64,000 bases of DNA, from NCBI GenBank assembly GCA_942493055.1, contig OW818680.1:4184529-4248528 (forward strand). The letters are read 5' to 3'. The position numbers and the translations under genes were made by a program. This DNA is from an uncultured bacterium (GTDB lineage: Bacteria > Verrucomicrobiota > Kiritimatiellia > RFP12 > UBA1067). Shown here in pieces: positions 10,180 to 49,782 of the stretch. The notes under the pieces were generated by a model. The model was not told the origin of the DNA. It worked only from the letters and a program-made list of their open reading frames with translations, and made no database searches. How positions within the stretch are numbered: the stretch's first letter is position 1; the number at the start of each line of letters is the position of its first letter.

Positions 10180-10595
10180 GCTTCTCAATCGCTTGCGGTT
10201 AATCAAGCCAATGAAATTGCTATGATTGCTTTTTATCCTGTAAAAATCAAGCGAAACTTCTGAATTGATCCGCGGTTGGAAAACTCTTTCCCCACGGAAC
10301 ACACGGAATGTCACGGAAAAAGAACCAAATCATTTCTTCTGTGTTCTTCCTGTGCGTATGACAAGGCTTACCTATAGCTTCAGTTTTTACCGCAAAGAAC
10401 ACAAAGATCTCAAAGATGAACTTCTGTATGCACTGTTTTGTAATTTGGGTTAACCTGTTTTCTCTGTGTTCTATGCGTTCTTCCTGACCGCCGTAGCCTT
10501 GGCGTAGGCTGGTTGTGGTTAAAAAATCTCAATCCGCGTCAATCCGCGCAATCCGTAGCTAAAAGTTATCCCTCCGTTTATTTGTGTGGTCTTTG
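10180..10595. repeat. Cluster of dispersed repeat modules (taaaaatcaagcgaaactt; tttaccgcaaagaacacaaagatctcaaagat; ccgccgtagccttggcgtagg)
   Basis: 10383-10590 is a near-duplicate of 48615-48775. 10232-10250 matches 13179-13197. 10487-10506 matches the reverse complement of 3335-3354. The small ORF 10265-10453 is repeat-encoded. Confidence 0.75.
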
Positions 10596-13169: not shown

Positions 13170-13456
13170 TTTATGCCGTAAAAATCAAGCGAAACTTGCC
13201 TATAACTTGTTTTGTTTTAACCGCAAAAACCGCAAAGAGATTGCGCGGCTATCTCATCCGCCTCACCCGTGGATACACGGACGGCGGAATGGATAGCCGC
13301 GCAGATGAATACTGATTCCATATCCATCAGTGAAAAACAAGTCTTTCGCTGATGGATATTTGATGCTATTCCGCGCAAATGTTCGCTCCGCCGTCCATGT
13401 ATTCATGGGCGAGGCGGGCGTGACATTTGCGCTCTTGTAGCGGTTTTTGCGGTACG
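13170..13456 (+). repeat. Structured dispersed repeat of about 250-280 bp, copy A (+ orientation)
   Basis: It is about 95% identical to the reverse complement of 16925-17165. Its modules are ccgcaaaaaccgcaaag, the inverted repeat gcgcggctatc...gatagccgcgc, the hairpin ccatcagtgaaaaacaagtctttcgctgatgg, and a conserved terminal module cgcaaatgttcgctccgccgtccatgtattcatgggcgaggcgggcgtgacatttgcg. Confidence 0.85.
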
Positions 13457-16924: not shown

Positions 16925-17165
16925 TCGCAAAAGCCGCGAAGAAGAGCGCAAATGTCACGCCCGCCTCACCCATGAATACATGGACGGCGGAGCGAACATT
17001 TGCGCGGGGCAATCTCAAATATCCATCAGCGAAAAACTTGTTTTTCGCTGATGGATATGAAATCAGTATTCATCTGCGCGGCTATCCATTCCGCCGTCCG
17101 TGTATCCACGGGTGAGGCGGATGAGATAGCCGCGCAATCTTTTTGCGGTTTTTGCGGTAAAATGA
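16925..17165 (-). repeat. Structured dispersed repeat of about 250 bp, copy B (inverted relative to copy A)
   Basis: Its reverse complement aligns to 13205-13456 with only a few mismatches. With copy A it forms inverted repeats bracketing the 13491-16691 gene. The conserved module end faces the gene start. Confidence 0.85.
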
Positions 17166-18342: not shown

Positions 18343-18419
18343 GTTGTGTTCCCTTCATTCTAAAACGAATAGTCGTATTTAACCACAAAGAGCACATAGA
18401 GCGCAAAGATAAAACAATG

Positions 18420-18740: not shown

Positions 18741-18935
18741 ATGAGAACAACGCTCAATATAGATGACAGGCTGCTCAAGGACGCATCCCGGCTTACCGGA
18801 GTACGGGAGAAGACCGCTCTGGTCCGAATCGGACTGGAGACGCTCATTGCCCGCCAGAGCGCGCAACGTTTGGCGGTGCTCGGTGGAACAGAACCGCAGG
18901 CTCGACAGGTCCCCCGGCGGAGACCGCCACTGTGA
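18741..18935 (+). CDS. vapB: Type II antitoxin VapB (ribbon-helix-helix/COG4423-like)
   Basis: A 64-aa ORF: MRTTLNIDDRLLKDASRLTGVREKTALVRIGLETLI matches the VapB antitoxin consensus. Its stop overlaps the vapC start by 4 bp (gtga). An operator-like inverted repeat, tgcatca-N16-tgatgca, spans the start at 18713-18742. Confidence 0.85.
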   Translation: MRTTLNIDDRLLKDASRLTGVREKTALVRIGLETLIARQSAQRLAVLGGTEPQARQVPRRRPPL

Positions 18936-19309
18936 TCCTCGTTGATTCTTCAATCTGGATGGATCACTTTCGCAAGCAGAACTCGCATTTAATTTCGCTG
19001 CTGGAGAGGGATGAAGCGTGTATCCACCCGTTCGTGATCGGTGAAGTGGCCTGTGGCAACCTGAAGAACAGAAAAGAGATCATAGCCCTCCTTCATGCGC
19101 TTCCAGATGTTCAGAAAGCTGACGATGACGAAATCCTTTTCTTCATTGAGCGACATCAGCTGAATGGACGCGGAGTCGGTTTGATCGATATTCACCTGCT
19201 TGCCGCATGCCTCATGGCGAGATGCCGCCTCTGGACAGGCGATAAGCGGTTGCAAGAGGTTGCTCGGGAGATGCATATTGAACATAGCACCCTATCTTCT
19301 GCTGGCTAG
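18932..19309 (+). CDS. vapC: PIN-domain toxin VapC
   Basis: A 125-aa ORF with the PIN signature MILVDSSIW...D and conserved acidic residues (EVA, LIDIHLLA). It is translationally coupled to vapB. Confidence 0.85.
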   Translation: MILVDSSIWMDHFRKQNSHLISLLERDEACIHPFVIGEVACGNLKNRKEIIALLHALPDVQKADDDEILFFIERHQLNGRGVGLIDIHLLAACLMARCRLWTGDKRLQEVAREMHIEHSTLSSAG

Positions 19310-21252: not shown

Positions 21253-24200
21253 CTACCGCTTGCTCATCACAAAGTCGTAGGCGTTCTGGAAGAGGCGCAG
21301 CCAGGGCCCTGCTTCGCCCGTGAAGAGGTCATCCGGACGATAGGAGAGCTGCACGGAGCGGAAGCCGCGTTCAGGATGCGGCATCAGGATCGTGGCGCGT
21401 CCGTCTTCGGAGGTGAAGCCTGTCAGCCCAGCCTTGGAGCCGTTCGGATTCCAAGGATAACGCTCGGTCGGCTGACCGCGTCCATCCACAAAGCGCAGGG
21501 ATGCGATGGCATTCTTTTCGTCCTGTGCATTCTCGAAGACTGCGAGTCCTTCGCCATGCGCGACTGCGATGGGCAGTCGTGAACCCGCCATACCCTTGAG
21601 CAGCACAGACGGGGAGTCCATGACTTCCAGCGTTGCGTAACGCGCCTCGAACTGTTCGGAGATGTTTCGACGGAAGGCTGGCCAGTGCTGCGCACCCGGG
21701 ATGATGCCCTTGAGCTGCGACACCATCTGGCAGCCGTTGCAGACGCCAAGCGTGATCGTGTCAGGCCGTTCAAAGAAGGTCTTGAACATGGCAAGAAGCT
21801 TGTCGTTGTAAAGTACGCTGCGCGCCCAGCCGGAGCCTGCGCCGAGCACATCGCCGTAAGAGAAGCCGCCACAGGCCACGAGGCCGTTGAAATCCTTCAG
21901 ATCCACACGTCCGCTCAGGAGGTCGGTCATGTGTACGTCCACGGATTCAAAGCCCGAAAACGCAAAGGCCGCGCCCATTTCAACATGTCCGTTTACGCCC
22001 TGTTCGCGTAGGATCGCGACGCGAGGTTTGGAAGGGGCTTGGTGCACCAAGCCCTTACTGTCAGGATCAAAGGTCACCTTGAAGGTCATGCCCGGGTCTT
22101 GTTCATCGAGACCGTTGTCGTATTCCTGTTTCGCGCAGTCGGGGTTGTCGCGTAAGGACTGCATGTGGTAGGTGAGTTCCGACCAGGTGCGGCGCAATTG
22201 GCGCAGGGTCATGTCGATGACCACGCTGTTGCCGACCTTGATCTTCAGCACGCGGTCATTCGTCGGCTGTCCGATCAAGGTGCAGAACGGCGCTTTTGCA
22301 AGTCCATGCTTCGCGAGCACCTGCATGACCGCATCAAGCTTGTCCTGCGCGACTTGCAGCACGGCTCCCAGTTCTTCGTTGAAGAGCGATGCAAGGACCG
22401 GGAGGGGCGCAGGCTCTGCGCCCGCGGACGGCGATCCGCCGTCCCTCCCTAATTCCACATTCATGCCGCGTCCGCCGGAGATGGCCATCTCTGTGAGCGT
22501 CACCGCGAGTCCGCCGTCTGAACGGTCGTGGTACGCGAGCAACAGTTTCTGCGAGACGAGTTCCTGGATGGCTTCGAAGAAGGACTTGAGGAGCGCGGGA
22601 TCATCCGCATCCGCAGGCTGTTCGCCGACCTGGTTGTAGACCTGCGCCAGCGCGCTGGCGCCGAGGCGGTTCTTGCCCTGGCCCAGATCAATCAGGAGCA
22701 GTGAGCTGCTGCCGGGCTTCAGGTCAGGGGTGAGGGTCTTGCGCACATCCTGGACCGGCGCGAAGGCGGTGACGATCAGGCTGAGCGGCGCGACTTGGCG
22801 ATGCGAGGCGCCCTTGGCATCCTGCCACACGGTGCGCATGGAGAGCGAGTCCTTGCCGACAGGAATGGAGACGCCGACCTGCGGACAGAAGTCAATGCCC
22901 ACAGCCTTGACCGTGTCAAAGAGCTTGGCGTCTTCGCCCTGTTCGCCGCAGGCGCACATCCAGTTTGCTGAAAGTTTGATGTTGCCGATCGCGCCCACAT
23001 CTGTTGCCGCGAGGTTGGTCAGCGATTCCGCGACAGCCATGCGTCCAGCAGCCGGGGCGTCGAGCAGCGCGATTGGGGTGCGCTCGCCTGTGGCCATGGA
23101 TTCGCCTGCTGTTGTCTTATAGCCAGCAGTGGTCACGGCGCAGTCGGCCATGGGAAGCTGATAGCGACCGACCATCTGATCGCGGTGCACCATGCCAGTC
23201 ACGGAGCGGTCGGCGATGGTGACGAGGAAGGTCTTGTCCGCAACAGCCGGCAGACGCAACACGCGCAGGAGCGCATCAGCAGGGGTGACGCCGGAGAAGT
23301 CCAGCTTGCGGGAGGCTTCAGTGGTGTGCTTCACATCGCGCAGCATGCGGGGCGGCTTGCCGAGCAGCACGCGGATGTCCATGTCAATGGGGTTGTCGCT
23401 GAAGTGTTCGTCGTGGAGCACGAGCCGCTCATCATCACGCGCCACGCCGATGAAGGCGACCGGGCAGCGTTCGCGTTCGCAGAGCGCGGCGAAGCGTTCG
23501 CGGTCTTCCGGACGGATGGCCAGCACATAACGCTCCTGCGCTTCGCAGCACCAGACCTCCATGGGGCTCATGGACTTCTCTTCGTTGTGCACGTTGCGGA
23601 GTTCGAAGGTGGCGCCGGTCTTCTCGACCAGTTCGGGACAGCCGTTGGAGAGTCCGCCTGCGCCGATGTCATGGATGCTCAAAATGGGATTGTCATCGCT
23701 GAGCGCGATGCAGGCGTCGATGACCTCCTGGCAGCGGCGTTCGACTTCGGCATTGCCGCGTTGCACCGAGTCAAAGTCAAGGGCTTCGTCATTGCTGCCG
23801 GTCGTCATGGAGGAGGCTGCGCCACCGCCGAGGCCGATGCGCATGGCGGGTCCGCCGAGCTGCACGATGATGGAGCCGGGGGGCACGTCCTTCTTGTAGA
23901 CCTGACTGCGGCGGATGTTGCCCATGCCGCCTGCGAGCATGATGGGCTTGTGGTAGCCGCGGAGGCGACCTGCGACGTCCTCTTCGTAGGTGCGGAAGAA
24001 GCCGCAGAGTTGGGGACGGCCGAATTCATTGCCAAAGGCTGCGCCGCCGATCGGACCTTCGATCATGATGGAGAGGGGCGTTGCCAGGCGTTTGGGAAAT
24101 TCCGCATACTCTTTTTCCCAGGGCATCTGATAGCCCGGCACATTCAAGTTCGAAACCATGAAGCCTGCGAGACCGGCCTTGGTCTTGGAGCCGATGCCGG

Positions 24201-25152
24201 TCGCTGCCTCGTCGCGGATTTCACCGCCCACGCCCGTGGCTGCGCCAGGGTAGGGGGAGATGGCAGTCGGGTGGTTATGCGTCTCGACCTTCATGAGCAT
24301 ATCAACCTGGTCAGGCTCAAAGCGGTAGGTCTTGGTGGCCGTGTCGATGAAGAAGGCCTCAGTCTCGACGCCTTCCACGACGCCTGAATTGTCCTTGTAA
24401 GCGACCAGCGTGCCTTCAGGATGGCAGGCGTGGGTATGCTTGATCATCTGGAAAAGCGACTGGGCCTTCTCTTCGCCGTCGATAATCCAGTTCGCATTGA
24501 AAATCTTGTGGCGGCAGTGTTCCGAGTTCACTTGGCCGAACATCACTAGTTCCGTGTCTGTGGGATTGCGTCCGGCCTTGGTGTAGCTCTCGAAGAGGTA
24601 GCTGATCTCCTCCTCGCTCAAGGCGAGCCCCATGGTGGTGTTCGCCTCCTGCAAGGCGGCGATGCCGCGTCCCAGCACATCGAACGACTTGCCGCGTGCC
24701 GGCGGGCGATGTGCGAAGAAGTCCGACAGATCCACATACACGCCCTCGGTCATGCGGTCATGCAGGGCATTCAGCACCGGACGCAGCGCTTCAACCGAGA
24801 CAGGCTTGCCATCCACGGAGACGCAGAAGTGAACGCCACGTTCCACGCGCGTCACCGAGGCGATGCCGCAGTTATTAAAGATGTCAGTCGCCTTGGAAGA
24901 CCAGGGGGAGATGGTTCCCTTGCGCGGGGTGACGAAAAAGCCCTCGGCCAGGTTCGCATGACCCGAGGCGCCGAGCAGGGAGCAGGCGCGCGATAAGGTC
25001 TCGCCGTCCAGGTCCTTCTCGATCTCCAGCAGGTAGACAAACCACGCCTCAAGAGTAGTGGTTCCCTGGATGGTTTCGGATATTTTTTCAACCAACGTGT
25101 CGAGTCGGAATTTTGAAAAAGCCTGCACACCTTGCAACATCAACATCTTCAT
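21253..25152 (-). CDS. purL: Phosphoribosylformylglycinamidine synthase, single-chain large form
   Basis: A 1299-aa ORF colinear with single-chain FGAM synthase. It has the N-terminal PurS-like region, AIRS and AIRS_C domains, and a C-terminal class I glutamine amidotransferase domain ([12 protein letters not shown]). Confidence 0.95.
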
Positions 25153-25390
25153 AAGCGTAATATCTCCCTACGGCTAAAATTGAAGGTATATAGATTACCG
25201 TTTTAAACCCCTCCAGTCGAGCCACAAAGGCTGTCGGGTGTGATTTTTCTACCTCTAACTCGCACCTGCGCCCGATTTGCTGATCCCGCTTGACTCTGTT
25301 CTTGTAATTTTGCATAAAACGTCTTATCCTCAAAGCTTCATTTTTAATGCTTCGAGTCTGGAGGACTCTAAAAAAACGGGGAAATAAGCC

Positions 25391-26323
25391 ATGAAGTCGA
25401 TGTTGAGTATCGTAGGGGTCTTGTTAGCTGTCGGTTGTGTTGCACAGGAGAAGTCTGAATCATTTATGAAGGGGCGGCGTTTTGCTGTTGGCGATTATTC
25501 AGGCAGCAAGGTTGCGATTGTCGAGGCGGACGGCACCATGAGTTGGAGTTTCCCTGCGCCCAATTGTAATGACGTGTGGATTCTCCCGGGCGACTCGCTC
25601 CTCTTTGTGGCCGGTACAGCGGTCCGCGAAGTGTCGATCGCGGATAAGAAGGTCAAATTCGAGTACACCAGCAAATCAACGATCTATGGTACGCAACGGC
25701 TCGCCAACGGCAACACCTTCGTTGCAGAGTGCACAGGCGCGAAATTGTTGGAAGTCGCCCCGGATGGCAAGGTCGTCAAGACCTTGGCGTTGGCACCGAA
25801 GGACAATGAAAAGGGCAAGGACACGCCGGGCAACGGAGCCTATATGCGAAATGCGCGCGCGCTGCCGAATGGCCATTACCTCGTCGGACACTATGCCGGA
25901 AACCGCGCAGCGGAATATGATGCGGACGGTAAAGAGGTGTGGACAGCCAAGCTCCCCACGGGCGTCCACAGCGTGGTGCGGCTTCCGAACGGCAACACCA
26001 TGCTGGCCGGGACGGACAAGGGGCCCACGGGCTTGCGCGAATTTAATCCGGCAGGCGAGGTTGTGTGGAGCCTGACGAACGAGGATTTGGCGGATAAGCC
26101 GCTGAAGTTCACGACTGGCTTTCAGATCCTGCCCAATGGAAACATCCTGCTCACAAACTGGGTCGGCCATGGACAATTCGGCAAAGCGCCGCATATCCTG
26201 GAGGTCACCCGCGACAAGAAGGTCGTCTGGACCTTCAACGACCATGTGAATTTCAAGACGATTGCCTCTGTTCAGGTCTTCCCGAAAGAGGGAGAGAAAC
26301 TGGAAATCATGAATGTGCATTAA
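25391..26323 (+). CDS. Secreted or lipoprotein beta-propeller protein (function unknown)
   Basis: Lipoprotein-like signal (LLAVGCVAQ) and repeated blade-like units (LANGNTFVAE, LPNGHYLVGH, LPNGNTMLAG, LPNGNILLTN). It is divergent from purL. Confidence 0.6.
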   Translation: MKSMLSIVGVLLAVGCVAQEKSESFMKGRRFAVGDYSGSKVAIVEADGTMSWSFPAPNCNDVWILPGDSLLFVAGTAVREVSIADKKVKFEYTSKSTIYGTQRLANGNTFVAECTGAKLLEVAPDGKVVKTLALAPKDNEKGKDTPGNGAYMRNARALPNGHYLVGHYAGNRAAEYDADGKEVWTAKLPTGVHSVVRLPNGNTMLAGTDKGPTGLREFNPAGEVVWSLTNEDLADKPLKFTTGFQILPNGNILLTNWVGHGQFGKAPHILEVTRDKKVVWTFNDHVNFKTIASVQVFPKEGEKLEIMNVH

Positions 26324-26325
26324 GA

Positions 26326-26567
26326 GTGGAGTGGAATACTGGAATAGTGGAATGTTGGAATGTTGGAATGCTGGAATGTCGGAATACTGGAATCTTGGAA
26401 TAATGGGAGAGAAAACCACTGGTCATTGGGAGCGGCGCAGGCCTCTGCGCTACAGGGAGGGACGGCGGATCGCCGTCTAAGCGGGCGATCCGCCCGCTCT
26501 CCCAGAACCAGCATCCAGTTGTGTTCCCCAACATTCCAAAATTCCCATATTCCCATATTCCATTGAA
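26326..26567. repeat. Composite intergenic repeat (TGGAATR arm, two-hairpin GC core at 26455-26503, inverted ATTCC arm)
   Basis: It starts 3 bp after the stop of 25391-26323. In the core gggagggacggcggatcgccgtctaagcgggcgatccgcccgctctccc, the second hairpin carries compensatory substitutions relative to other copies (agcgggcg/cgcccgct versus ggcggtcg/cgaccgcc). Confidence 0.85.
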
Positions 26568-26587
26568 GTTTACGAAGGAGTTGAAAG

Positions 26588-28765
26588 ATGAAGCACGAAC
26601 GGTTTGTAGTAGCGTTTGGATTGATCGCCTGCTCGTTACAGGCGGCAGTGAAGGTGCCGGCGATTTTCGGCGAGAACATGGTGTTGCAGCAGCAGCAACC
26701 CGTGCCGGTCTGGGGATGGGCCGATGCGAATGAGCAGGTCACAGTCGAATTTGCAGGACAGAAGAAGTCAGCGACCGCAGGTGCCAATGGCAAGTGGATG
26801 TTGAAGCTCGATGCCTTGAAAGCCTCTGCAACGCCAGCTGTCTTTAAGGTCAGCGCCTCGAATGTCATTACGCTGAACAATGTCGTGGTGGGTGAAGTCT
26901 GGTTTGCCTCCGGACAGTCCAACATGGAGTGGCCTGTGCAGGCGAGTAATAATTTTGACCAGGAGAAGGCCAGTGCGAATTGGCCGCTGATCCGCCACTT
27001 CAAGGCGCCCAAGAATTTTAAGCCTTCGCCACAGGACGACATCAGCGCCAAGTGGGAGGTGACCACGCCGGAGTCGATCGGAGGACAGTCCGCGCTGGCC
27101 TACTTCTTCGGGCGCCGTCTTCATGAAGCATTGAAGGTCCCTGTCGGCATGATCAACAGCTCATGGGGCGGAACCCGCATTGAGCCCTGGACCCCTGCGT
27201 GCGGTTTTGAAGGCCTGTCGGCGCTCGAAGGCATTAAGAGCCGTGTCGATATGGCCACGCCCTCCACGCCTGTTCACAAGAAGGCCTTGAACGAGTATAT
27301 CGCTGCCTTGAACGTATGGATGGACGATGCCAAGAAGCGCGAGGCAGCGGGTCAGGCGATCGAAACACCCGCCCCGGAGTTCCCGCAAAACTTGATCTTC
27401 CCGACGGGGAACGGTAAACATCAGGAGCCGACCGTGCTCTATAACGGCATGATGGCCGGCCTGGTTCCCTTTGCGATCAAGGGCGCGATCTGGTATCAAG
27501 GCTGCTCGAACAATGGCGAAGGCATGCTTTATCTTGAGAAGACTAAGGCCTTGGTCAATGGCTGGCGCGCAGTCTGGGGCCAGGGCGACTTCCCATATTA
27601 TCTCGTGCAACTCGCGCCCTACAATTATGGAGCTGGCGCTGAGGCGCGCCTGCCGGGTATCTGGGAGGCGCAGGCAGCAGTGCCTGCCGCGATTCCGAAT
27701 ACGGGCTATACCGTCATCAATGACATCGGCAACCCCAAAGACATCCATCCGCGTAACAAGCAGGACGTGGGCCTGCGCATGGCCAACCAGGCGCTCAATC
27801 GCACATACGGCATGAAGGAGATTGCATGGTCCGGCCCTGTCTACAAGTCGTTTGCCATCGAAGGCGCAAAGATGCGCATTGCTTTTGATTGCGCCGACGG
27901 ACTCAAGACCCGCGATGGCAAAGCCCCTGACTGGTTTGAGATGGCTGGACAGGATGGCCAGTATAAAACCGCGGATGCCGTGATTGAAGGCTCTGCCGTC
28001 GTTCTTTCGAATGCCTCCATCGATAAGCCCCTGGCTGCGCGCTTTGCCTGGAACCAAATCGCCGAGCCCAACCTGGTCAATGGTCTTGGCCTGCCGACCA
28101 GCGCCTTCCGTTGCGGTGAGATGCCGAAGCTCGATGGCGCGCTCGCGATGACCGAGTTGAACGGTTTTCGCAAGGTCTATGAGCTCGACCTTCCTGCGAA
28201 TCCCAAGTTTGCACAGCAGGCGCCTGCCTACTCCACCGACAACAGCGCATGTGCGGGAGAGTTTTCAAAGGTCGCGTATGTATTGCAACTGGAAGACAAC
28301 AGCGGCAGCATTCGCTATGTGGCCACGTTCATGGATGCTTTTACAAAGGATGTGAAGAAGTTAACCATCCCTTATGCCGGGAGCAACATCAAGCACCAGA
28401 TGAAGGTCAATAATCTGACGGTGCGCTCCAATGTGGAAACGCTTCCGACACTGACCGACAGCGATGGCGGCAACATCGAATTTTGGGGCGCGAACTATGG
28501 TCCCGGAACCGTATTGCGCTTGGACGGCGCCAGCCAGCAAAAATATGATTTCGATGATCAGCCTGCTGCGGATGGCACGTATGGCTCTATGCAGGTCCAT
28601 GCCTGGAAAAACAAGATCGTACTCTTCGCCTTCAATAATTTCAATGGCGGCGGGACGTGCGACATCGGCATCGGCAACAACACCAAGGGCGAACAACAGG
28701 ATTACACCTTCATGAGCAATGGCGGCGACTATAAGACGCGGCGCTTGACGGTATTGGTAAAGTAA
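26588..28765 (+). CDS. Sialate O-acetylesterase-like SGNH hydrolase (carbohydrate acetylesterase) with extra C-terminal domains
   Basis: Signal peptide present. The block VVGEVWFASGQSNMEWPV is characteristic of the sialic acid-specific 9-O-acetylesterase (DUF303) family, and the SGNH-like GDFPYYLVQL block follows. 725 aa. Confidence 0.85.
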   Translation: MKHERFVVAFGLIACSLQAAVKVPAIFGENMVLQQQQPVPVWGWADANEQVTVEFAGQKKSATAGANGKWMLKLDALKASATPAVFKVSASNVITLNNVVVGEVWFASGQSNMEWPVQASNNFDQEKASANWPLIRHFKAPKNFKPSPQDDISAKWEVTTPESIGGQSALAYFFGRRLHEALKVPVGMINSSWGGTRIEPWTPACGFEGLSALEGIKSRVDMATPSTPVHKKALNEYIAALNVWMDDAKKREAAGQAIETPAPEFPQNLIFPTGNGKHQEPTVLYNGMMAGLVPFAIKGAIWYQGCSNNGEGMLYLEKTKALVNGWRAVWGQGDFPYYLVQLAPYNYGAGAEARLPGIWEAQAAVPAAIPNTGYTVINDIGNPKDIHPRNKQDVGLRMANQALNRTYGMKEIAWSGPVYKSFAIEGAKMRIAFDCADGLKTRDGKAPDWFEMAGQDGQYKTADAVIEGSAVVLSNASIDKPLAARFAWNQIAEPNLVNGLGLPTSAFRCGEMPKLDGALAMTELNGFRKVYELDLPANPKFAQQAPAYSTDNSACAGEFSKVAYVLQLEDNSGSIRYVATFMDAFTKDVKKLTIPYAGSNIKHQMKVNNLTVRSNVETLPTLTDSDGGNIEFWGANYGPGTVLRLDGASQQKYDFDDQPAADGTYGSMQVHAWKNKIVLFAFNNFNGGGTCDIGIGNNTKGEQQDYTFMSNGGDYKTRRLTVLVK

Positions 28766-28770
28766 GAGAT

Positions 28771-28895
28771 TGGAATGTTGGAATATTGGAATACTGGAGT
28801 GTGGGAACTAGAAGCTTTCCGGGGTACTGCTAACTGCTACTGCCAACTGCTACTCTCCCCATTATTCCACCATTCCATTGTTCCATCATTCCACT
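28771..28895. repeat. Composite intergenic repeat, coreless variant (TGGAATR arm, short spacer, inverted ATTCC arm)
   Basis: gattggaatgttggaatattggaatactgg...ccattattccaccattccattgttccatcattccactg. The spacer tgctaactgctactgccaactgctact replaces the GC core. Confidence 0.75.
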
Positions 28896-28915
28896 GAAAT
28901 TAAAGGAGCACAGAC

Positions 28916-30451
28916 ATGGCATACTACTTAGGCATTGATAGCAGCACACAGAGTTTGAAGGGATTGGTCATCGATCCTTCAGCAGGAAAAATCATCGGCA
29001 GCGCGAATGTGAATTTCAAGGCGGACCTGCCGCAGTTCAACTGTCCGGATGGCGTGCTGGCGCATCCCGATCCCTTGGTCAAGCACTCCGACCCGATGAT
29101 GTGGATGGCGGCGCTGGATCTGATGCTGACGCGCTTGCAGGCGAGCGGAATTGCCATGAGCGAAATCGCGGCCATCGGCGGCGACGGACAGCAGCATGGC
29201 TCTGTTTACCTCAACAGCACCTTTGCGAAGGTCGCTGCGAATTTAAATCCGGCGTTGACGCTGGCTGAACAGCTCAAGAGCACGCTTTCGCGTCCGACCG
29301 CGCCGATCTGGATGGACAGCTCGACATCCGTGGAGTGCCGCGAATTGGACAAGGCCTTTGGCGCGCGTCTGCAGACCGATACGGGTTCTCCCGCGATTGA
29401 ACGTTTTACAGGTCCGCAAATCCGCAAGTTTGCGAAGCACGAGCCGGAACGCTATGTGCAGACCGCGCGCATTCATCTGGTCAGCTCCTTCCTCTGCTCC
29501 GTGCTGATCGGCAAGGACGCGCCCATTGACCGCGGCGACGGCGCGGGCATGAATCTCTTGAATCTCAAGACCAACACCTGGGATCCGCAGATCACGGAAT
29601 TCACGGCGCCTGGCTTGCAGCAGAAGTTGCCTCCTGTCGCCGGCGGTGTCGCAGGCCACTTGCACGCCTACTTTGCGAAGTACGGCTTGAAGGCCGGAAT
29701 TCCTGTGGCTGTCTGGACCGGCGACAATCCTGCGAGTTTGGTCGGCACGGGCGCCTGGAGCGCCGGCGTGGCGGTCATCAGTCTGGGCACGAGCGATACC
29801 TTCTTCTCCTCGCTGGAGAGTTTCAGGACTGATCCTGAAGGCTGCGGACACGTGCTGGGCAATCCGGCTGGCGGCTGTATGTGCCTGGCCTGCTTCAAGA
29901 ACGGCTCGCTCGCTCGCGACCGCGTGCGCAAAGAGGCTGGCGCGGAATGGTCCTTCTTTGACAAGACCGCCTTCGAACTGACTCCTGCAGGCAATAACGG
30001 CCAGTTGGCATTGCCGTGGTTTGAAGCGGAGATCACGCCGCCGGTATTGACGCCTGGCATGCGCGCGAATTTTGATTTTGCTGCTGCGAAACCCGAAGTG
30101 CGTATCCGTGCGACAGTGGAGGGCCAGGCACTGGCTCTGCGCAGCCATGCGGCCTGGATCGGCAGCTTCAAGAGTATCCGCGTCACCGGCGGCGCTTCGA
30201 AGAGTCCTGGCATCCGCCAGACGCTCGCGAACGTCTTCCAGGCGCGTGTGGAGAGCATTGCCGTGGCGGATTCCGCTGCCCTGGGCGGCGCGATGATGGC
30301 TGCGCATGCGGACGGCGTGCCGCTGGCGAAGATGACCGAGGCCTTCTCGCCGGTCAGCGACGTCTGCCTGCCTCAGCCCGAGACCGCGGCTGTCTACGAC
30401 AAGCTCCTGCCGCTCATCCGCGAGTTGGAGAAAGCAGCACCGATTAGCTGA
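28916..30451 (+). CDS. FGGY-family carbohydrate kinase (xylulokinase/ribulokinase-like)
   Basis: N-terminal MAYYLGIDSSTQSLKGLVID (FGGY motif 1), the central GTSDT block, and the C-terminal GGASKSPGIRQ ATP-binding motif. 511 aa. Confidence 0.8.
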   Translation: MAYYLGIDSSTQSLKGLVIDPSAGKIIGSANVNFKADLPQFNCPDGVLAHPDPLVKHSDPMMWMAALDLMLTRLQASGIAMSEIAAIGGDGQQHGSVYLNSTFAKVAANLNPALTLAEQLKSTLSRPTAPIWMDSSTSVECRELDKAFGARLQTDTGSPAIERFTGPQIRKFAKHEPERYVQTARIHLVSSFLCSVLIGKDAPIDRGDGAGMNLLNLKTNTWDPQITEFTAPGLQQKLPPVAGGVAGHLHAYFAKYGLKAGIPVAVWTGDNPASLVGTGAWSAGVAVISLGTSDTFFSSLESFRTDPEGCGHVLGNPAGGCMCLACFKNGSLARDRVRKEAGAEWSFFDKTAFELTPAGNNGQLALPWFEAEITPPVLTPGMRANFDFAAAKPEVRIRATVEGQALALRSHAAWIGSFKSIRVTGGASKSPGIRQTLANVFQARVESIAVADSAALGGAMMAAHADGVPLAKMTEAFSPVSDVCLPQPETAAVYDKLLPLIRELEKAAPIS

Positions 30452-30481
30452 TTCGTTTAGGTGTGTGTCTGTAACTTCAAC

Positions 30482-30688
30482 TGGAATGTTGGAATACGGG
30501 AATGTTGGAATCTCCTCCTACGCGGATACGGCTCCGGCGGACAGGATGGGGGGGGAGACGGGATACCGGCTCTGGGAGGGACGGCGGATCGCCGTCCGGC
30601 GGTCGACCCGACCGCCCTCCCAAGATAGTCTTCTTCCAATATTCCAAGATTCCATTATTCCTTTCCAAGATACCTCTCCGTTTATTCC
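30482..30688. repeat. Composite intergenic repeat (TGGAATR arm, GC core at 30574-30622, ATTCC arm, CGTTTATTCC tail)
   Basis: It starts about 30 bp after the kinase stop. The core gggagggacggcggatcgccgtccggcggtcgacccgaccgccctccc has an outer 7-bp stem gggaggg/ccctccc enclosing two hairpins. Confidence 0.85.
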
Positions 30689-30733
30689 CGTCCGGCAGCC
30701 GCCGGACCGAGGCGGCGGGCGTGAGAAGGGGAG

Positions 30734-33700
30734 ATGAGCGTGAGAAAAGCAAGAAGAAATATGTTGGGCGTCTTAATCGGGATTGTGCTTTCATTGAGAT
30801 GCGCTTCAGCATGTGCGGATATCCAGCTCTCTCCCTGGCAGGCGATCGGCCCCTTTAAGAATGCCCAGTTTGGGAGCCTTGTGCCCAGTTCGAAAGAGGT
30901 CTATGCGCCTGAAGCGGACGTGCTGGCAAAAGGGGCGGCGCTGGCGGACCTCTCGAAAAGCTACACCGGCGTCAATGTGGATGCAGAGGGGAAGCCCTTT
31001 CCGATGTACGATGCCTTCACCGTTGCGAAATGGGTGCAGCATCCGGAGTGGGCAGACGGGTATCGCAACCTGTTGCCGCGCGGTCCTGCGCCGTCACGCC
31101 ATGAGACAACCTATCTTTACCGCACGATCACTGCATCCGTAGCGACAAACGTAACGCTGCGCGTCTATGCGGAGGATGCCATACAGGCATGGATCAATGG
31201 CGCACCCAACGGACGTGCGATGCGCGTCTACAGTCCCGAGCATCGGCCGACGGCTCTGGTGGCATCCGTGCCCTTGCAGAAGGGGGCGAATCGTTTGCTC
31301 ATCAAAATCACCTCCCTGTTTGCTAAGCATGGCTTTGCCTTTGCCATCGATGGCGTCACAGTTTCCAGCACGCTCGCGCCAGAGGGCTGGCAGGATGTGT
31401 GCAGGAACGAGAAACAGCCTTATCTACTGGATGCGCAAGGCGTGCCGAAGTCAGGGGTGTTCAGGATGAAGGCCCTGCCGGAGCCGATGTTCGACCCCGC
31501 GCAGTTGACCCTGGAGGAGGCGCGCAAATCCATCCCGCTCACCGAAGGGGGCGCTGCGTATGAGCGCTCCATCCGGGCAGTCAATCCGCTAGACCGGCAG
31601 ACGATTCTCGCGCATTGGCAGGGACAGCTCAAGCGGACGGGTCCTATTCTCTTCATGACCTATCCAACCTATTCAATCAATGCCATCGCCCCCCATTCAT
31701 CTCAAGGGGCGTGCCCGGCCTCCATCTGTCTCTTTGATCCGGCCGACCCGAAGGAGTCCCCGAAAGTGATCTTTGCTGAAGAGGAACTCAAGCTCTTCGA
31801 CATGAATCTCTCCTACGACGGCAAGACGATCTTCTTTTCCGCCAAACGAAAAGAGGACGGCCCCTTTTGGCAGATCTATGAGATCGGCACGGACGGGAAG
31901 AATCTGAAGAAAATCATCGGGGGTCAGTGCCAGAACATCAGTCCTGCCCTCCTGCCGGACGGACGGCTCATCTTCATCTCTGACCGCGCCACAACGTATG
32001 TGCAGTGCCAGGCCCAGACCTCGCCCCTTCTCTATTCATGTGCGCGCGACGGTTCAGACATCCGGAAGCTCTCAGCCAATATCGACAGCGACCATACGCC
32101 CCAAGTCATGAACGACGGCAAGATCCTCTTCACGCGCTGGGACTATGGCATTGATAAGAATGTGGACAACCGCCAGGCGCTCTGGACCATGAATCCGGAC
32201 GGGACCGCCATGAAGCTCTTCTTTGGCAACACCATTGAAGATCCGAGCGGTTTCTGGGCTGCGCGGCCTGTGCCCGGACGGCCTGAAGTGCTTTGCGTGC
32301 TGGGTCCGCACCACAACAACCATACGGGCATGGCTGGGCTTGTCTGGAATCTGAAAGGACCAGAAGCGCCGCGCGGCGAGGGCTTCCGCTTCCTGACCCT
32401 CCAGCGTCCCTACGTGGGCGATACAGGACTCCCCTGGCTCTGGCAGGATCTCTATCCCGTCAATGAGAAGCTCTTTCTCGCGAGCTACGGAGGCGACGGC
32501 GGACTCAAAAACCGCCTCTACCTGCTGGATGACCGCGGCAACCGGTTCTGCTTCTATGAGTCTGCGACCAACCTGGGCTGTTTCAATCCCATGCCCCTTG
32601 CGCCCCGTCCTGTACCGCCAGAGGTTGCGCAGGGCTGCACGCCGGTCCCCTTTGTGTTTGAGGACCCTGAACAGCTGAACCAGGCGCCCCGCACCAATGA
32701 CGTCGCTACCTTGATGGTATATGATGTCTATCTGGGCGTCGAACCGCATATCAAGCGCGGCGAAGTCAAATGGATTCAGGTGATGGAGCAGGTGTTGAAG
32801 TCACGGCGCATGGATGGCGGCGAAGCGTGGGGCCACACGCCCATCATCGGACGCGGCACTGTCCATGTGCGCCGCGAGATCGGAAGGGTCCCGGTGAACG
32901 CGGACGGTTCCGCCCATTTCACGGTGCCTGCCCTGCGCAACATCTCCATGAACCTGCTCAACGCGGAAGGCCAGGTCATCATGCGCATGGGCTCTGACAT
33001 GCACACCATGCCCGGCGAGAAGCAGAACTGCATCGGCTGCCACGAGAATCGCAAAGGGGGCGTGCCGCCCTCTGTGACCAAGCAGCCGTTGGCGAGCAGC
33101 CAGCCGCCGGTCGCGCCCCAACAGGCCAACTGGGGGACTCAGGGCGTCATCGACTATCAGCGCGTCGTGCAGCCTGTCTGGAACCGCTATTGCGTCAGCT
33201 GCCACAGCGGGCCGAGGCCCGTAGCGCACCTCGATTTAAGCGGCGACCGTACGCGCTTCTTCTGCGTCTCCTACGACAACCTTGTGGAGCGCGCCCTGGT
33301 CGAATGGCATCAGCCTTTCGCCAACGACTACGACGACAACTTCCCGAAGACCGTCGGAGCCGTTGTCAGCAAGATCCAGACGAAAGTGCTCGACTCCAAA
33401 CATTGCGGGAAGACCATTCCTCCGGACATGCGCTACCGGGTCTGGTGCTGGATCGATGCCAACGTGCCCTATTACGGGACGTACGACTACACCAAGGTGA
33501 AAGACGAGAAGGGGCGCGAGATCGTCCGCGGCGCTGGCGCACGCGATGCGTGGCAGGCAGACGGCATCTGGTCGCAAGCGAACTGGTCCAAGCACTATCC
33601 CAGCACGCCGAACCTCATTTACGACGGCATCAAGCCTGTCTTTGACAGACGCTGCATGAGCTGCCATGAGACGCCGGTGTACAACGGCGGCACCTGGGGC

Positions 33701-34033
33701 TTTGGCGGCGGCTCCATGGACGCCCCCTTCCCGGTCAGCAGCAAGCTCTGGCAGGATCGCGGACTCTGTGCGCACATGGCCATACCGCGTTACGGCTCGA
33801 GCCTCATCTACGGACCGGAACTGCGCATCAACCTCACGAATCCTCAAAACAGCTCCATGCTGCAGGCCCCGCTCTCAAAGGAGGCAGGCGGCTGGGGCGT
33901 GTGCAAAAAACCCGATGGCAAGCCGCTCTTTGAGTCCACGGCTGATCCGGACTACCAGACCATGTTGAAAGCCATCAAGGCCGCCTCCGACCGCCTCCGC
34001 GCCGCGCCCCGTAAAGACATGGCGGGGGAGTAG
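30734..34033 (+). CDS. Large secreted protein: N-terminal beta-sandwich (PA14/lectin-like), TolB/PD40 beta-propeller repeats, three PSCyt1-type CxxCH heme motifs
   Basis: Signal peptide present. PD40-like repeats (DGKTIFFSAKRKEDGPFWQIYEIGTDGKN, PDGRLIFISDR, DGKILFTRWDYG). Heme motifs CIGCH, YQRVVQPVWNRYCVSCHSGPRPVAHLDLSG and CMSCHETP. It is paralogous to 13491-16691 and 61094-end. Confidence 0.8.
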   Translation: MSVRKARRNMLGVLIGIVLSLRCASACADIQLSPWQAIGPFKNAQFGSLVPSSKEVYAPEADVLAKGAALADLSKSYTGVNVDAEGKPFPMYDAFTVAKWVQHPEWADGYRNLLPRGPAPSRHETTYLYRTITASVATNVTLRVYAEDAIQAWINGAPNGRAMRVYSPEHRPTALVASVPLQKGANRLLIKITSLFAKHGFAFAIDGVTVSSTLAPEGWQDVCRNEKQPYLLDAQGVPKSGVFRMKALPEPMFDPAQLTLEEARKSIPLTEGGAAYERSIRAVNPLDRQTILAHWQGQLKRTGPILFMTYPTYSINAIAPHSSQGACPASICLFDPADPKESPKVIFAEEELKLFDMNLSYDGKTIFFSAKRKEDGPFWQIYEIGTDGKNLKKIIGGQCQNISPALLPDGRLIFISDRATTYVQCQAQTSPLLYSCARDGSDIRKLSANIDSDHTPQVMNDGKILFTRWDYGIDKNVDNRQALWTMNPDGTAMKLFFGNTIEDPSGFWAARPVPGRPEVLCVLGPHHNNHTGMAGLVWNLKGPEAPRGEGFRFLTLQRPYVGDTGLPWLWQDLYPVNEKLFLASYGGDGGLKNRLYLLDDRGNRFCFYESATNLGCFNPMPLAPRPVPPEVAQGCTPVPFVFEDPEQLNQAPRTNDVATLMVYDVYLGVEPHIKRGEVKWIQVMEQVLKSRRMDGGEAWGHTPIIGRGTVHVRREIGRVPVNADGSAHFTVPALRNISMNLLNAEGQVIMRMGSDMHTMPGEKQNCIGCHENRKGGVPPSVTKQPLASSQPPVAPQQANWGTQGVIDYQRVVQPVWNRYCVSCHSGPRPVAHLDLSGDRTRFFCVSYDNLVERALVEWHQPFANDYDDNFPKTVGAVVSKIQTKVLDSKHCGKTIPPDMRYRVWCWIDANVPYYGTYDYTKVKDEKGREIVRGAGARDAWQADGIWSQANWSKHYPSTPNLIYDGIKPVFDRRCMSCHETPVYNGGTWGFGGGSMDAPFPVSSKLWQDRGLCAHMAIPRYGSSLIYGPELRINLTNPQNSSMLQAPLSKEAGGWGVCKKPDGKPLFESTADPDYQTMLKAIKAASDRLRAAPRKDMAGE

Positions 34034-34069
34034 CGTTGTTTGTGTCTGTGGCCCTGTTTATAACTTCAT

Positions 34070-34235
34070 TGGAATGTTGGAATACAGGAATGTTGGGGGA
34101 AGACGGGATACCGTCTCTGGGAGGGACGGCGGATCGCCGTCCGACGGTCGATCCGACCGCCCTCCCGATCTCTGTCAACCTTCTTCAGCTAACACATTAA
34201 CACACTTCTCCAAGATACTCCCCTCAGTTTATTCC
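34070..34235. repeat. Composite intergenic repeat (TGGAATR arm, GC core at 34119-34166, tail ending in CAGTTTATTCC)
   Basis: It starts about 35 bp after the stop of 30734-34033. The core gggagggacggcggatcgccgtccgacggtcgatccgaccgccctccc and the tail acacttctcc...ccctcagtttattcc match the 3311-3586 copy. Confidence 0.85.
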
Positions 34236-34287
34236 AGCTTTGCTGGCGGGGGTGCGCTTGTCATTCCGTGAAGTCATCTTGCTCTAT

Positions 34288-34328
34288 ACTCAACGCATTG
34301 AGTAAAATTACTCAATGCGTTGAGTAAT
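34288..34328. promoter_or_regulatory. Perfect 41-bp palindrome (operator-like) upstream of the DUF4143 ATPase gene
   Basis: tactcaacgcattgagtaa-aat-tactcaatgcgttgagtaa. Each half-site is itself near-palindromic. It lies 64 bp upstream of the ATG at 34392 in an AT-rich promoter-like region. Confidence 0.6.
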
Positions 34329-34391
34329 TTTTATTGCAAGCGTTTGGCTAGTATGATAAATTGCCCCTATTTATCAGGGAGATAAGTATTT

Positions 34392-35579
34392 ATGGCTTAT
34401 AAAAGAAAGATCGTTGAGGAAGTCAAGAAAGGGCTTGAAAAGGCCCCTGGACTGATTCATGTCGTTGTGGGCCCGCGTCAGGTGGGTAAAACTACGGCGA
34501 TGCGGGACCTTTGCGAATCAGGTCTGATGCCCCATTACTGGGTTGCAGCAGACATGGCTCTTCCTGTCGGTGCTGAGTGGCTGGAGAGCCACTGGCAGAT
34601 GGCCGAAGCCGAAGCCCGTCAGAGGCCAGGTCCTTTTCTGCTGGTCGTGGATGAAGTTCAAAAAGTGAGAGGCTGGAGCGAGACCGTCAAACGGCTTTGG
34701 GACCGTTCGCGGGCTGAAAAGAGTCTCCTGCGTGTGGTGTTGCTGGGGTCATCCGCTTTACTGGTCCAAGCCGGGTTGACGGAGAGTCTCCATGGCCGCT
34801 TTTTCCTCCACCGGTGCATGCATTGGAGTTTCTCTGAAATGCAGGAGTCCTTTGGCTGGGATTTGAACAAGTGGCTCTACTTTGGTGGTTATCCAGGGGC
34901 TGCTGTTTTTTCAGATGATGAGCGGCAATGGCGGCAATATGTGGCGGATGCCATGGTGGAGACGGTTTTGGCGCGGGATGTCTTTCAACTCGCGACGATC
35001 AGTAAGCCCATTCTCATGCGGCACCTCTTCAGTCTGGCGGCTCGCTTCCCGGCCCAGATTCTTTCCTACAACAAGATGCTGGGGCAGCTCCTGGATGCGG
35101 GGAACACGACGACGCTGGCGCATTACCTTAAATTGCTGGAGGCCGCCTTTCTTGTTTCCGGATTGGAACTCTACTCGGCAGGGCATCTGCGGCGTCGCGG
35201 GAGCAGTCCAAAGCTTATCTTCTGGAATGATGCCTTGATACATGCGCTCTCCGGTTACACCTATTTACAGATGCAGACGGACACGGCGTGGTATGGGCGT
35301 GTCCTGGAAAATGCGGTTGGCGCGCATTTGCTGAATCATTTGCCGACGCCCGAGTGGTCTGTCACCTATTGGCGGGATGGAATAAAGGAGATGGATTTTG
35401 TGGTCACCCATGGACATCAAACGTGGGGCATCGAAGTGAAGAGCGGAATACCGCGAAACATGTCCGGTCTTGTCGCGTTCCGTAAAGCCTATCCAGACGC
35501 CAGGGTACTTGTCATTGGCGCTGAAGGCATTGACCCGGAGCGGTTTTTCTCTTGCTCGCCGGAACTGCTTCTCTGCTAG
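34392..35579 (+). CDS. AAA+ ATPase of the DUF4143 family (AAA_14 + DUF4143; COG1373-like)
   Basis: Walker A (VVGPRQVGKTT), Walker B (LLVVDEVQ), and a C-terminal DUF4143-type region (GIEVKSG...). 395 aa. Confidence 0.85.
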   Translation: MAYKRKIVEEVKKGLEKAPGLIHVVVGPRQVGKTTAMRDLCESGLMPHYWVAADMALPVGAEWLESHWQMAEAEARQRPGPFLLVVDEVQKVRGWSETVKRLWDRSRAEKSLLRVVLLGSSALLVQAGLTESLHGRFFLHRCMHWSFSEMQESFGWDLNKWLYFGGYPGAAVFSDDERQWRQYVADAMVETVLARDVFQLATISKPILMRHLFSLAARFPAQILSYNKMLGQLLDAGNTTTLAHYLKLLEAAFLVSGLELYSAGHLRRRGSSPKLIFWNDALIHALSGYTYLQMQTDTAWYGRVLENAVGAHLLNHLPTPEWSVTYWRDGIKEMDFVVTHGHQTWGIEVKSGIPRNMSGLVAFRKAYPDARVLVIGAEGIDPERFFSCSPELLLC

Positions 35580-40530: not shown

Positions 40531-41104
40531 TATGAAAAAACAAGTGAACAAGACACGAGTGGCAGAGCTGACGCGTCAGCTCCTGATTGAGCTGGGCGAA
40601 GATCCTGACCGCGAAGGGTTGAAGGGGACGCCGAAGCGCGTGGCGGAGTCGCTCGCCTTTCTGACCGGCGGCTATCGGCAGACGACGAAGCGGGTCGTCA
40701 ACAATGCGGTCTTCCAGTCGCATACGAACCACATGATCATCGTTCGCGACATCGAAATCTACAGCTTGTGCGAACACCACATGCTGCCCTTCTACGGCCG
40801 CTGCCATGTGGGCTACATCGCCAAGGACAAGGTGATCGGCGTGAGCAAGATCGCACGCATCGTGGATTGTTTCGCGCGCCGGCTCCAGATTCAGGAGCGC
40901 CTGACGGAGCAGATCGCTGACTCGATCATGGAGGAGGTGGATGCCGAGGGCGTCGGCGTGGTCATGGAGTGCCGCCACCTCTGCATGATGATGCGCGGCG
41001 TGGAGAAGCAGAACTCGGTCATGACCACCTCGGCCGTGCTCGGCTCCTTCCGGACCGAAGGCGCCACGCGCCAGGAGTTCTTGTCATTGATTAGGGCGCA
41101 TTAA
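40531..41104 (+). CDS. folE: GTP cyclohydrolase I
   Basis: An RBS (ggagaag) precedes the ATG at 40531. The FolE active-site blocks [11 protein letters not shown] and [13 protein letters not shown] are present. It starts 2 bp after the channel gene stop. Confidence 0.9.
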
Positions 41105-41340
41105 GAAGTTCTAAAGTTCTAAAATGCTAAAGTTCCTGACGGGGATGCGCGTTTAGGGATCGTGAGGCTGGTGGCTGGCAGGTGATCGGCCACGACCCGC
41201 CTTCGAAAATCTACGGCTTGGCAGGCAGCGCGTGGCCCTCCCGTGCGTTTGATTTCCCCTTGAATATTGGATATTCCGTGTTGGATATTGGATATTCCGT
41301 CAACTTTAGAACTCTCGAACTTTAGAACTTCTCGCTCGAT
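41105..41340. repeat. Short inverted AACTTTAGAAC-type repeats flanking a GC-rich segment, with tandem TGGATATTCCG units
   Basis: gttctaaagttctaaaatgctaaagttcc (41105-41133) pairs with aactttagaactctcgaactttagaac (41303-41330). ttggatattccg occurs 3 times at 41263-41300. Confidence 0.6.
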
Positions 41341-47143: not shown

Positions 47144-47169
47144 GCTTCTGTTCCTTTCAAAACTTTATT

Positions 47170-47330: not shown

Positions 47331-47332
47331 TC

Positions 47333-49766: not shown

Positions 49767-49782
49767 TGGTTTCGTGTTTTAG

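Follow-up and report, generated by a model that had tools for sequence, protein, structure and literature searches.

Arrays of the short tandemly repeated repetitive (STRR) type were first described in 1990. They include the heptamers of cyanobacteria, (GGGAATC)n of Xanthomonas, (GGGGAYT)n of Nostoc, and (TAACTGA)n of Beggiatoaceae, cyanobacteria, and Bacteroidetes (PMC2670836, PMC4692102, PMC4679880). Their function is called unknown (PMC2670836), and their spread across phyla has been described with "no mechanism evident" (PMC4679880). The intervening sequences (IVSs) of 23S rRNA are cut by RNase III without ligation, carry 23S_rRNA_IVP open reading frames (ORFs), and are thought to be spread horizontally (bioRxiv 10.1101/2024.02.27.582315); they are tolerated because the stem is removed at the RNA level by RNase III. 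The IVS ORF was described in 1993 by Ralph and McClelland, according to the citation in PMC3936711. Repetitive extragenic palindromic (REP) sequences are defined, in a passage of PMC3733652, as 20-40-nt imperfect palindromes with a GTAG or CGTC tag at one end. Here, we analyzed a 64,000-nt stretch of contig OW818680.1 from an uncultured Kiritimatiellia bacterium (the window), in which an intergenic element at 26326-26567 combines inverted arms of TGGAAT-type repeats with a GC-rich core. We favor, by a modest degree of confidence, reading the element as a mosaic of two independent kinds of selfish DNA in operon spacers, namely the arms of cassettes encoding a PF05635 protein and mobile GC-rich palindromes. 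STRR arrays, IVS cassettes, and the mosaic palindromes represented by bacterial interspersed mosaic elements (BIMEs) and miniature inverted-repeat transposable elements (MITEs) are known kinds; the link of short tandem arrays to PF05635 deserves following up.

The arms in the window are phased octamers of the unit TGGAATRN, with a period of 8 by Tandem Repeats Finder (TRF), and not the heptads read in an earlier note on this DNA. A two-unit arm pattern, with one mismatch tolerated, matches the window 43 times versus 0.53 times expected from dinucleotide-preserving shuffles, none of 100 of which reached 43. The eight arm-bearing copies listed in that note are all present near the places given and are all intergenic. 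Six are situated between co-directional ORFs, the 34070 copy follows the last gene of a run, and the 3311 copy lies between convergent ORFs. The elements are 60-280 nt long and noncoding, with inverted arms like the terminal inverted repeats (TIRs) of MITEs, and nearly fill their spacers, beginning 5-30 nt past a stop codon and finishing 1-70 nt ahead of the next start. Save for the period of 8, they show the STRR-type features of tandem units of ~7 nt, intergenic position, and many copies per genome. The copy at 26326-26567 is organized as follows.

26332-26407, plus strand: left arm, 9 phased TGGAATRN octamers, then TGGG (TRF period 8, 9.4 copies).
26428-26503, plus strand: core region, with the hairpin module GGGAGCGGCGCAGGCCTCTGCGC at 26428-26450 and then the cassette at 26455-26503.
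26455-26503, plus strand: cassette, GGGAGGG-ACGGCG-GAT-CGCCGT-…-GCGGGCGATCCGCCCGC-TCTCCC.
26525-26562, plus strand: right arm, ~4 NYATTCCA units.

After the right arm comes TTGAAGTTTACG, 25 nt 5′ of the ATG at 26588; its reverse complement is the one-sided outer motif (C)TATAACTTCAA. Both core modules recur inverted at 3419-3447 and 3457-3505.

The arms are conserved far beyond this genome. A scan that sampled one genome per species gave at least 120 loci with three or more units, and the arm loci among the matches listed belong to Bacteroidales, Desulfobacterales, Syntrophia, Planctomycetota, Verrucomicrobiota, Lentisphaerae, Kiritimatiellia, Ignavibacteria, Calditrichia, and others. All 50 paired elements (45 in these loci and 5 in the window) take the form (TGGAATRN)n … (NYATTCCA)n in one orientation, giving the consensus fold-back (TGGAATRN)~4-TGGG … CCCA-(NYATTCCA)~4, with a modal arm length of 4 units and with TGGG 3′ of 76 of 166 arms. 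The cores enclosed by paired arms vary from 7 to 193 nt, and lineages share no core sequence. Most elements (35 of 40) lie between co-directional ORFs, and contigs of metagenome-assembled genomes (MAGs) end within arms in three cases (L007, L011, and L033).

Within the unit, the hexamer is conserved at 92-100%, 96% have a purine (A or G) at position 7, and position 8 is almost unconstrained. Watson-Crick complementarity between the spacers of the two arms is 0.30, versus 0.385 for shuffled partners, with no register better, and adjacent spacers are alike at chance level (0.178 versus 0.154±0.02). Since the spacers are non-complementary and neighbors are no more alike than expected by chance, the conserved object is the phased hexamer, neither a perfect palindrome nor a fresh product of slippage. 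With their conserved hexamers and free 2-nt spacers, the arms look like a sequence-specific recognition array, which agrees with the protein-binding array that the earlier note had envisaged. A literal full-text search of 8 million papers with six two-unit (14-nt) arm strings returned only primers and eukaryotic sequences. Stops in all three frames, considered as a possible role of the arms, occur in only 17% of them, and this idea was dropped. CsrA, Hfq, Rho utilization (rut) sites, sigma-54, and anti-Shine-Dalgarno pairing were considered for the arms and set aside, by misfit of the motif or because the factor is not known from Bacteroidota.

One gene family accompanies such arrays. In 13 of 13 contexts examined, PF05635 genes are located beside or between inverted arrays of 7-8-nt repeats, and the arms are of the TGGAAT type in 6 of the contexts. 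At L106, plus and minus arms surround a 133-aa PF05635 ORF, whose product has more than 1,000 homologues at E ≤ 1e-5; the best 120 are 71-95% identical, and many are on ~1-kb contigs. TGGAAT-, TGGAAG-, or TGGATG-type octamer arms adjoin the gene in five further independent contexts of close homologues. The array extends into the start codon in L263; the arm variants TGGAAG/TGGAAA are found in L264/L265 and TGGATG in the L258 group; L267 has nine units upstream and an inverted array downstream of a gene that lies in an efflux operon, with the permease gene on one side and the outer-membrane (OEP) gene on the other; and the L250 group is the fifth context. Wherever neighbors were recorded, at least one of the genes adjoining the four-helix-bundle gene shares its orientation. 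A decayed PF05635 remnant with arms is found in L062.

Distant homologues (28-45% identity) are encoded on plasmids of Nostoc, Calothrix, Stanieria, Pseudanabaena, Geminocystis, and Riemerella, and all seven that were fetched are flanked by 7-8-nt arrays. Five of the seven have matched inverted arrays on both sides, with a unit that differs by lineage (AGGGAAC/CTGTTCC, TTAGCTG/AGCTAAA, AAGGCAG/CCTTCTG, AAGGGAA/TTTCCCT, and GGTTCAAG/AACCTTGA). Long direct heptamer arrays border the Pseudanabaena gene on each side, and the Nostoc 7120 plasmid gene has a downstream array only. Across the 13 contexts, arrays number 6.2 per kb at distances up to 150 nt from the gene ends versus 0.44 per kb in the remainder of these loci. 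Published tables contain two similar cases: a Xanthomonas campestris (GGGAATC)4 array 6 nt from accB, over the start codon of XCC0516, and a 129-nt GGGGATT array of Nostoc 7120, 55 nt upstream of alr0549, which is annotated as a four-helix-bundle protein. The PF05635 structure in PDB 2GSC is that of XCC0516. Full-text literature searches gave no link of such arrays to the PF05635 family, and both this link and the cross-phylum spread of the arms were missed by the earlier note.

Two observations concern the same genes. On the Pseudanabaena galeata plasmid pPg_01 (45571-47321; L271), the four-helix-bundle gene lies between cas6 and cas4 and is bracketed by two arrays of 14-16 heptamer units; the "CRISPR association" reported for the family (PMC3936711) may be mere cassette insertion into cas operons. 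Gene callers also run four-helix-bundle ORFs into the upstream arm (P0241, P0245, P0326, and similar), and the false N-termini match other arms in blastx.

The GC-rich core behaves as a separate module. The consensus of its cassette is GGGAGGG-ACGGCG-GAT-CGCCGT-C(N)-CGGTCG-ATC-CGACCG-CCCTCCC, and five window copies contain it, at 3457-3505 (inverted), 26455-26503, 30574-30621, 34119-34166, and 45144-45191. A metagenome scan in which only GGGAGGG, two GATC, and CTCCC were fixed gave 63 contigs, with ~48 copies being members of the family; these comprise 14 distinct sequences with a mean column identity of 96%. The occurrence of the core on 63 metagenome contigs and of the arms in many phyla shows that the elements are not a local duplication, a case against which the earlier note had guarded. 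Among 42 core copies with distinct flanks, arms are present on both sides in 18, on one side in 16, and on neither in 8, and some copies are hybrids with TTGCCTTA/TTGCGTTA octamer arms on the other side. The core modules shift in order and orientation, in the window and in the 63 contigs, which is a feature of REP/BIME mosaics. Arms and core are independent modules. The description as a REP/BIME-like, dispersed, mosaic intergenic repeat family is borne out; that as one composite element is not. A decayed four-helix-bundle gene was considered as the origin of the core and rejected; its blastx matches are only arm-derived false N-termini.

The earlier note had drawn the core as an outer stem enclosing two hairpins in a three-way junction, counting two C residues twice. 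The 7-bp outer stem leaves hairpin 2 with only 6 bp, and RNAfold prefers a single long hairpin to the junction in two copies, an outcome that is frequent because the two inner hairpins are alike. The hairpin change in the 26455 copy, described there as fully compensatory, amounts on that structure to one T-A to G-C pair in one sequence, with a possible second two-sided pair in an alternative register. In most core variants a pair is altered on one side only, and 66 of 500 shuffles equal the covariation observed among the 14 distinct sequences, so that covariation lends the junction no support. Judged by these sequences, the core is a young, dispersed palindrome, with RNA covariation not demonstrated.

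A ninth copy of the cassette is placed within a gene.

22400-22449, minus strand: arm-less core cassette, in frame within purL (formylglycinamidine ribonucleotide (FGAM) synthase; ORF 21253-25152, minus strand).

It adds a net ~13 codons. The extra residues are absent from 17 PurL orthologues, two of them 85-87% identical, and empty-site DNA (L248:735-810 and L249:545-622) aligns on both sides of the insertion. Direct evidence of movement of the cassette as DNA comes from these filled and empty sites, and the case indicates that GC cassettes are tolerable inside essential genes. For the arms, ~68 kb of DNA from relatives (~82% protein identity) contains zero arrays versus 8 in the window; orthologous empty sites near the FGGY kinase gene gave none that was usable, as synteny is lost in the relatives.

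The remaining window copies are listed below.

3311-3586, plus strand: hybrid copy; a nested hairpin at 3325-3356 splits the TGGAAT arm; three GC hairpin modules, with the core inverted at 3457-3505.
28771-28893, plus strand: coreless copy with 4+4 arm units and no GC cassette; the loop has ACTGCTA/ACTGCCA heptamers; RNA fold z-score -5.8.
30482-30688, plus strand: copy with arms, nested hairpin, core at 30574-30621 (loop variant GACC), and outer motif AAGATACC…CCGTTTATTCC.
34070-34235, plus strand: copy with left arm alone, core at 34119-34166, and outer motif CAGTTTATTCC.
45088-45268, plus strand: copy with 4+4 arm units and consensus core at 45144-45191, flanked by two minus-strand genes.
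47169-47331, plus strand: copy with 4+5 arm units and a different cassette, GGAGGGCCACG…CGCGTCCCTCC, at 47219-47266.
60903-60930, minus strand: solitary half-arm of 2 units, then outer motif TTCAAGTTATC.

As the earlier note had it, the 28771 copy has no GGGAGGG core, and the inner module of the copy near 47218 is different; the latter cassette, with ends GGAGGG/CCCTCC, recurs in L053, L118, L216, and L243. The claim that each left arm is repeated in inverse on the far side is valid for the other paired arms and fails for the 3311 copy, the right arm of which (3504-3586) consists of ACTGACACTT (AAGTGTCAGT) decamers in place of ATTCCA units. This decamer array has an inverted partner at 1157-1239, 92% complementary over 83 nt, and the two enclose genes for a DUF3465 protein and a PAS histidine kinase. 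Since the array at 3504-3586 doubles as the right arm of a TGGAAT copy, the arm types are mixable.

The predicted RNA folds of the elements are stable, with z-scores of -5.5 to -7 overall and -5.8 to -7 for the ORF-less copies in the window. In L268, a 23-bp pairing of the arms encloses the entire ORF (z-score -5.5). The window copies form an interrupted stem of ~30-36 bp, in which 2x2 loops, mostly mismatched, separate 6-bp helices; an enclosing stem formed by inverted repeats is a feature of the IVS type. On the parallel with 23S rRNA IVSs and the pairing of the arms around an ORF, we therefore propose that these are IVS-like elements in mRNA spacers. The inverted arms would be the conserved ends shared by small fold-back cassettes of one family across phyla, whose full-length members would carry one gene between the arms, for a PF05635 / TIGR02436 four-helix-bundle protein. 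This protein family was originally discovered in 23S rRNA IVSs and is homologous to Avd of diversity-generating retroelements. The window copies would be ORF-less relatives that retained the arms, and the GC cassettes would be separate small mobile palindromes that landed in the fold-back loop as secondary passengers, and also elsewhere. We infer that read-through from the host operon transcribes the element and that the arms then pair into an interrupted duplex. By analogy with the IVSs, this stem is likely cut by RNase III in the polycistronic mRNA. Such processing would make insertion between cistrons harmless and, in full-length cassettes, would free the four-helix-bundle mRNA from read-through transcripts. 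The strict conservation of the hexamer across phyla, together with the change of unit with protein lineage, suggests that the arms are recognized by a protein.

Several points weigh against this proposal. No PF05635 gene is present in the window, and ~250 loci give one intact gene and one remnant. The descent of ORF-less copies from cassettes is suggested by the shared arms only, and the ORF-less cores are not decayed four-helix-bundle genes. The PF05635 contexts were all reached from one arm-flanked starting gene, with a control that is within-locus only, and tandem arrays are in any case abundant in cyanobacteria. The stem model leaves unexplained the long single arrays of 12-20 units, lacking an inverted partner, that are frequent in Bacteroidota. 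No insertion footprint of the arms was found in the flanks of the 50 elements, and RNase III may act poorly on a duplex whose 6-bp helices are separated by mismatched 2x2 loops.

A wider form of the proposal can be offered tentatively. PF05635 resembles Avd (PMC10053308), the structure of relatives was described as "five four-helix bundles" by Lin in 2006, as quoted in PMC3936711, and the PDB entries of relatives, 2GSC and 2RLD, hold 5 chains each. All short phased intergenic arrays, covering cyanobacterial STRR, Xanthomonas GGGAATC, possibly Beggiatoa/cyanobacterial TAACTGA, and TGGAATRN arms, may be cognate arms of one mobile class of cassettes that encodes a pentameric Avd-like four-helix-bundle protein. 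The protein would recognize ~5 phased units, and the element would ride on operon or rRNA transcripts, from which RNase III would release it. It would perhaps move via an RNA intermediate with a reverse transcriptase acting in trans, as Avd works with a retroelement reverse transcriptase, and the hundreds of ORF-less arrays per genome would be non-autonomous progeny.

A somewhat more doubtful alternative, compatible with the cassette proposal, is that the phased hexamers are cognate RNA or DNA sites of a pentameric four-helix-bundle protein acting in trans, with the ORF-less copies serving as a set of sites or a sponge rather than being inert relics. The strict 8-nt period with free spacers and the change of unit with protein lineage are in keeping with such a platform, as are the arrays of L263 and XCC0516, which extend into the start codon. 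An arm of modal length, with 4 units and the TGGG, presents five phased TGG motifs, against the 5 chains in the PDB entries of relatives; this match of five subunits with five motifs may, however, be numerology. Against the platform, array lengths vary from 2 to 20 units, and no PF05635 gene lies in the part of the source genome covered by the window.

The elements could also be REP/BIME-like and domesticated by the host, with hairpins that protect or terminate the 3′ ends of upstream cistrons, arms that bind a host protein, and no relation to PF05635. The position of the copies, intergenic and 5-30 nt after stop codons, would suit such a role, as would their stable folds, their composition as mosaics of GC-rich palindromes, and their BIME-like modular shuffling. 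We nevertheless regard it as unlikely. The cores have no GTAG or CGTC tag as in the part of PMC3733652 that defines the REP super-family, their changes are single-sided and of the decay type with no covariation, arrays are missing in close relatives, one core lies inside purL, and a specific gene family is bordered by the same arms. A hairpin leading directly into a T-run is absent from every copy, which also removes the terminator suggested by the earlier note. An intrinsic terminator was rejected on a scan of 25000-35000, which found none at the elements, where arm or flank comes after the cores. A perfect 18-bp palindrome (TACTCAACGCATTGAGTA…) and then a T-run, at 34287-34326 just past the 34070 element, form the one strong terminator-like site in that region.

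The flanks bear on a further alternative, that of a classical MITE, in which the arms would be TIRs made of repeated sites for a DDE transposase encoded elsewhere and PF05635 would be a mere passenger. No target-site duplication was found in the flanks of the 50 elements, only one-sided, lineage-specific outer motifs. In Desulfobacterota, the motif TTAG-(GGGGCTTCGCCCC or TTCGCTTCGCTCAC)-AAT, containing the GCGAAGC mini-hairpin motif, is found in the flank of one arm only (L006, L021, L036, L039, L056, L061, L069, L082, L099, L100, and L116), and copies of the Kiritimatiellia type have (C)TATAACTTCA(A/C) at the equivalent outer place. The elements are therefore asymmetric beyond the arms. Clustering of 1,753 ORFs of 120 arm-bearing loci for a recurrent neighbor gave only ABC ATPases and histidine kinases, and no transposase is present between or beside the arms in ~250 loci, or in the window. 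Among 2.9 million viral contigs, 57 hold arrays, and none as a fold-back (→ ←). The MITE explanation would account for the inverted arms with conserved hexamers and a variable interior, and for the high copy number, patchy distribution, and whole-element subfamilies recurring within lineages. It is nonetheless quite improbable, in view of these negative results and since the sole gene found between such arms, in 13 contexts, is PF05635.

The idea of a phage vector was dropped, as none of the 57 viral contigs with arrays has them as a fold-back. One group of phage contigs (L134, L138, L144, L146, L156, L158, L160, L166, L170, and L184) has three ATTCCANN units, ~110 nt, and three TGGAATNN units, which is the reverse (← →) arrangement to the fold-backs; small ORFs beside these arrays gave no informative PHROG. 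The least probable explanation is that the arrays have no specific partner and are neutral microsatellites produced by slippage during replication, or else G-rich structure-forming tracts. Xanthomonas and Nostoc heptamer arrays have been read as G-quadruplex formers with slippage-driven length variation (PMC4692102), but adjacent units here are alike at chance level, TGGAAT has no G-tracts, and hexamer, phase, orientation, and TGGG junction recur across phyla.

Other fold-back families are also present in the window. A second family has AACCGCAAA 9-mer arms and nested hairpins (GCGCGGCTATC…GATAGCCGCGC), at 13216-13436, 16942-17162 (inverted copy), 49777-50000, and 51519-51560; complementarity between the first two copies is 95% over 221 nt, and they flank a 1090-aa gene. 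A third has CACAAAGAN/CAAAGATCN 9-mer arms with the inverted partner CTCTGTGTTCT, at 10384-10475, 48616-48707, and 18378-18402, the two long copies being 87% identical. In a fourth, AAGTTCTA octamer arms (41104-41134 and 41302-41332) are inverted around a GC-rich core, beside which a 21-nt repeat of the TTGGATATTCCGTG type occupies 41260-41300. An Rfam scan of the whole window at gathering thresholds gave no family and no rRNA, and the window has no tRNAs. Its proteins are of the polysaccharide-degrader type and Kiritimatiellia-like. Defense-type genes occur among the carbohydrate genes, at 52051-57993 (1980 aa, DUF4011/helicase/REase_MTES_1575), 36447-38288 (T5orf172-DUF4041), and 18932-19309 (PIN-domain toxin).

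If the arrays are indeed arms of cassettes encoding a PF05635 protein, STRR arrays, the IVS ORF, and the free-standing genes become one testable system. Free-standing genes annotated as "four helix bundle / S23 ribosomal protein" are many, including those between cas genes, and have so far been unexplained; two array-associated members of the protein family have crystal structures. For annotation, the arms would explain assembly breaks in MAGs of sediment and gut bacteria and give warning of ORFs called into arms.

The elements differ in detail from each known system. The purL copy resembles Rickettsia palindromic elements (RPEs), which Ogata and colleagues reportedly found in 2000 to be inserted in frame into genes, in being a small palindromic repeat in frame in a conserved coding gene that is not destroyed; the sequences are unrelated, the phylum is another, and here the case is single. 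With MITEs and fold-back transposons, the elements share small size, lack of coding capacity, repeat-built inverted ends, many copies, and subfamilies, but they have neither target-site duplication nor transposase partner. As in the REP/BIMEs of enterobacteria and pseudomonads, extragenic, high-copy, GC-rich palindrome mosaics of variable order and orientation lie between cistrons. The window cassettes, however, begin with GGGAGGG or GGAGGG, without a GTAG/CGTC tag, and the arms are AT-rich tandem arrays conserved across phyla; no gene for a REP-associated tyrosine (RAYT, Y1) transposase was seen in the window or the arm-bearing loci.

With STRR arrays, the arms share short intergenic tandem units, often in operons near ORF ends, numbering hundreds per genome and with some hairpins, and the Xanthomonas unit GGGAATC and TGGAATRN both contain GGAAT. 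They differ in having a period of 8, not 7, and an obligatory inverted pair with a TGGG/CCCA junction. They also differ in host, since STRRs are of filamentous cyanobacteria, whereas the window is from Kiritimatiellia and the arms occur in Bacteroidota, Desulfobacterota, and Planctomycetes-Verrucomicrobia-Chlamydiae (PVC) phyla. Compared with IVSs, the elements are situated in mRNA spacers, not in rRNA helices 25 or 45, their stem is of phased 8-nt repeats, and no window copy has a PF05635 / TIGR02436 ORF between its repeats. The likeness to IVSs is that inverted repeats enclose a small four-helix-bundle gene or nothing, within host transcription units, with sporadic occurrence and apparent horizontal spread, and that full-length relatives of the window arms (L106, L263, and L267) carry the IVS protein family.

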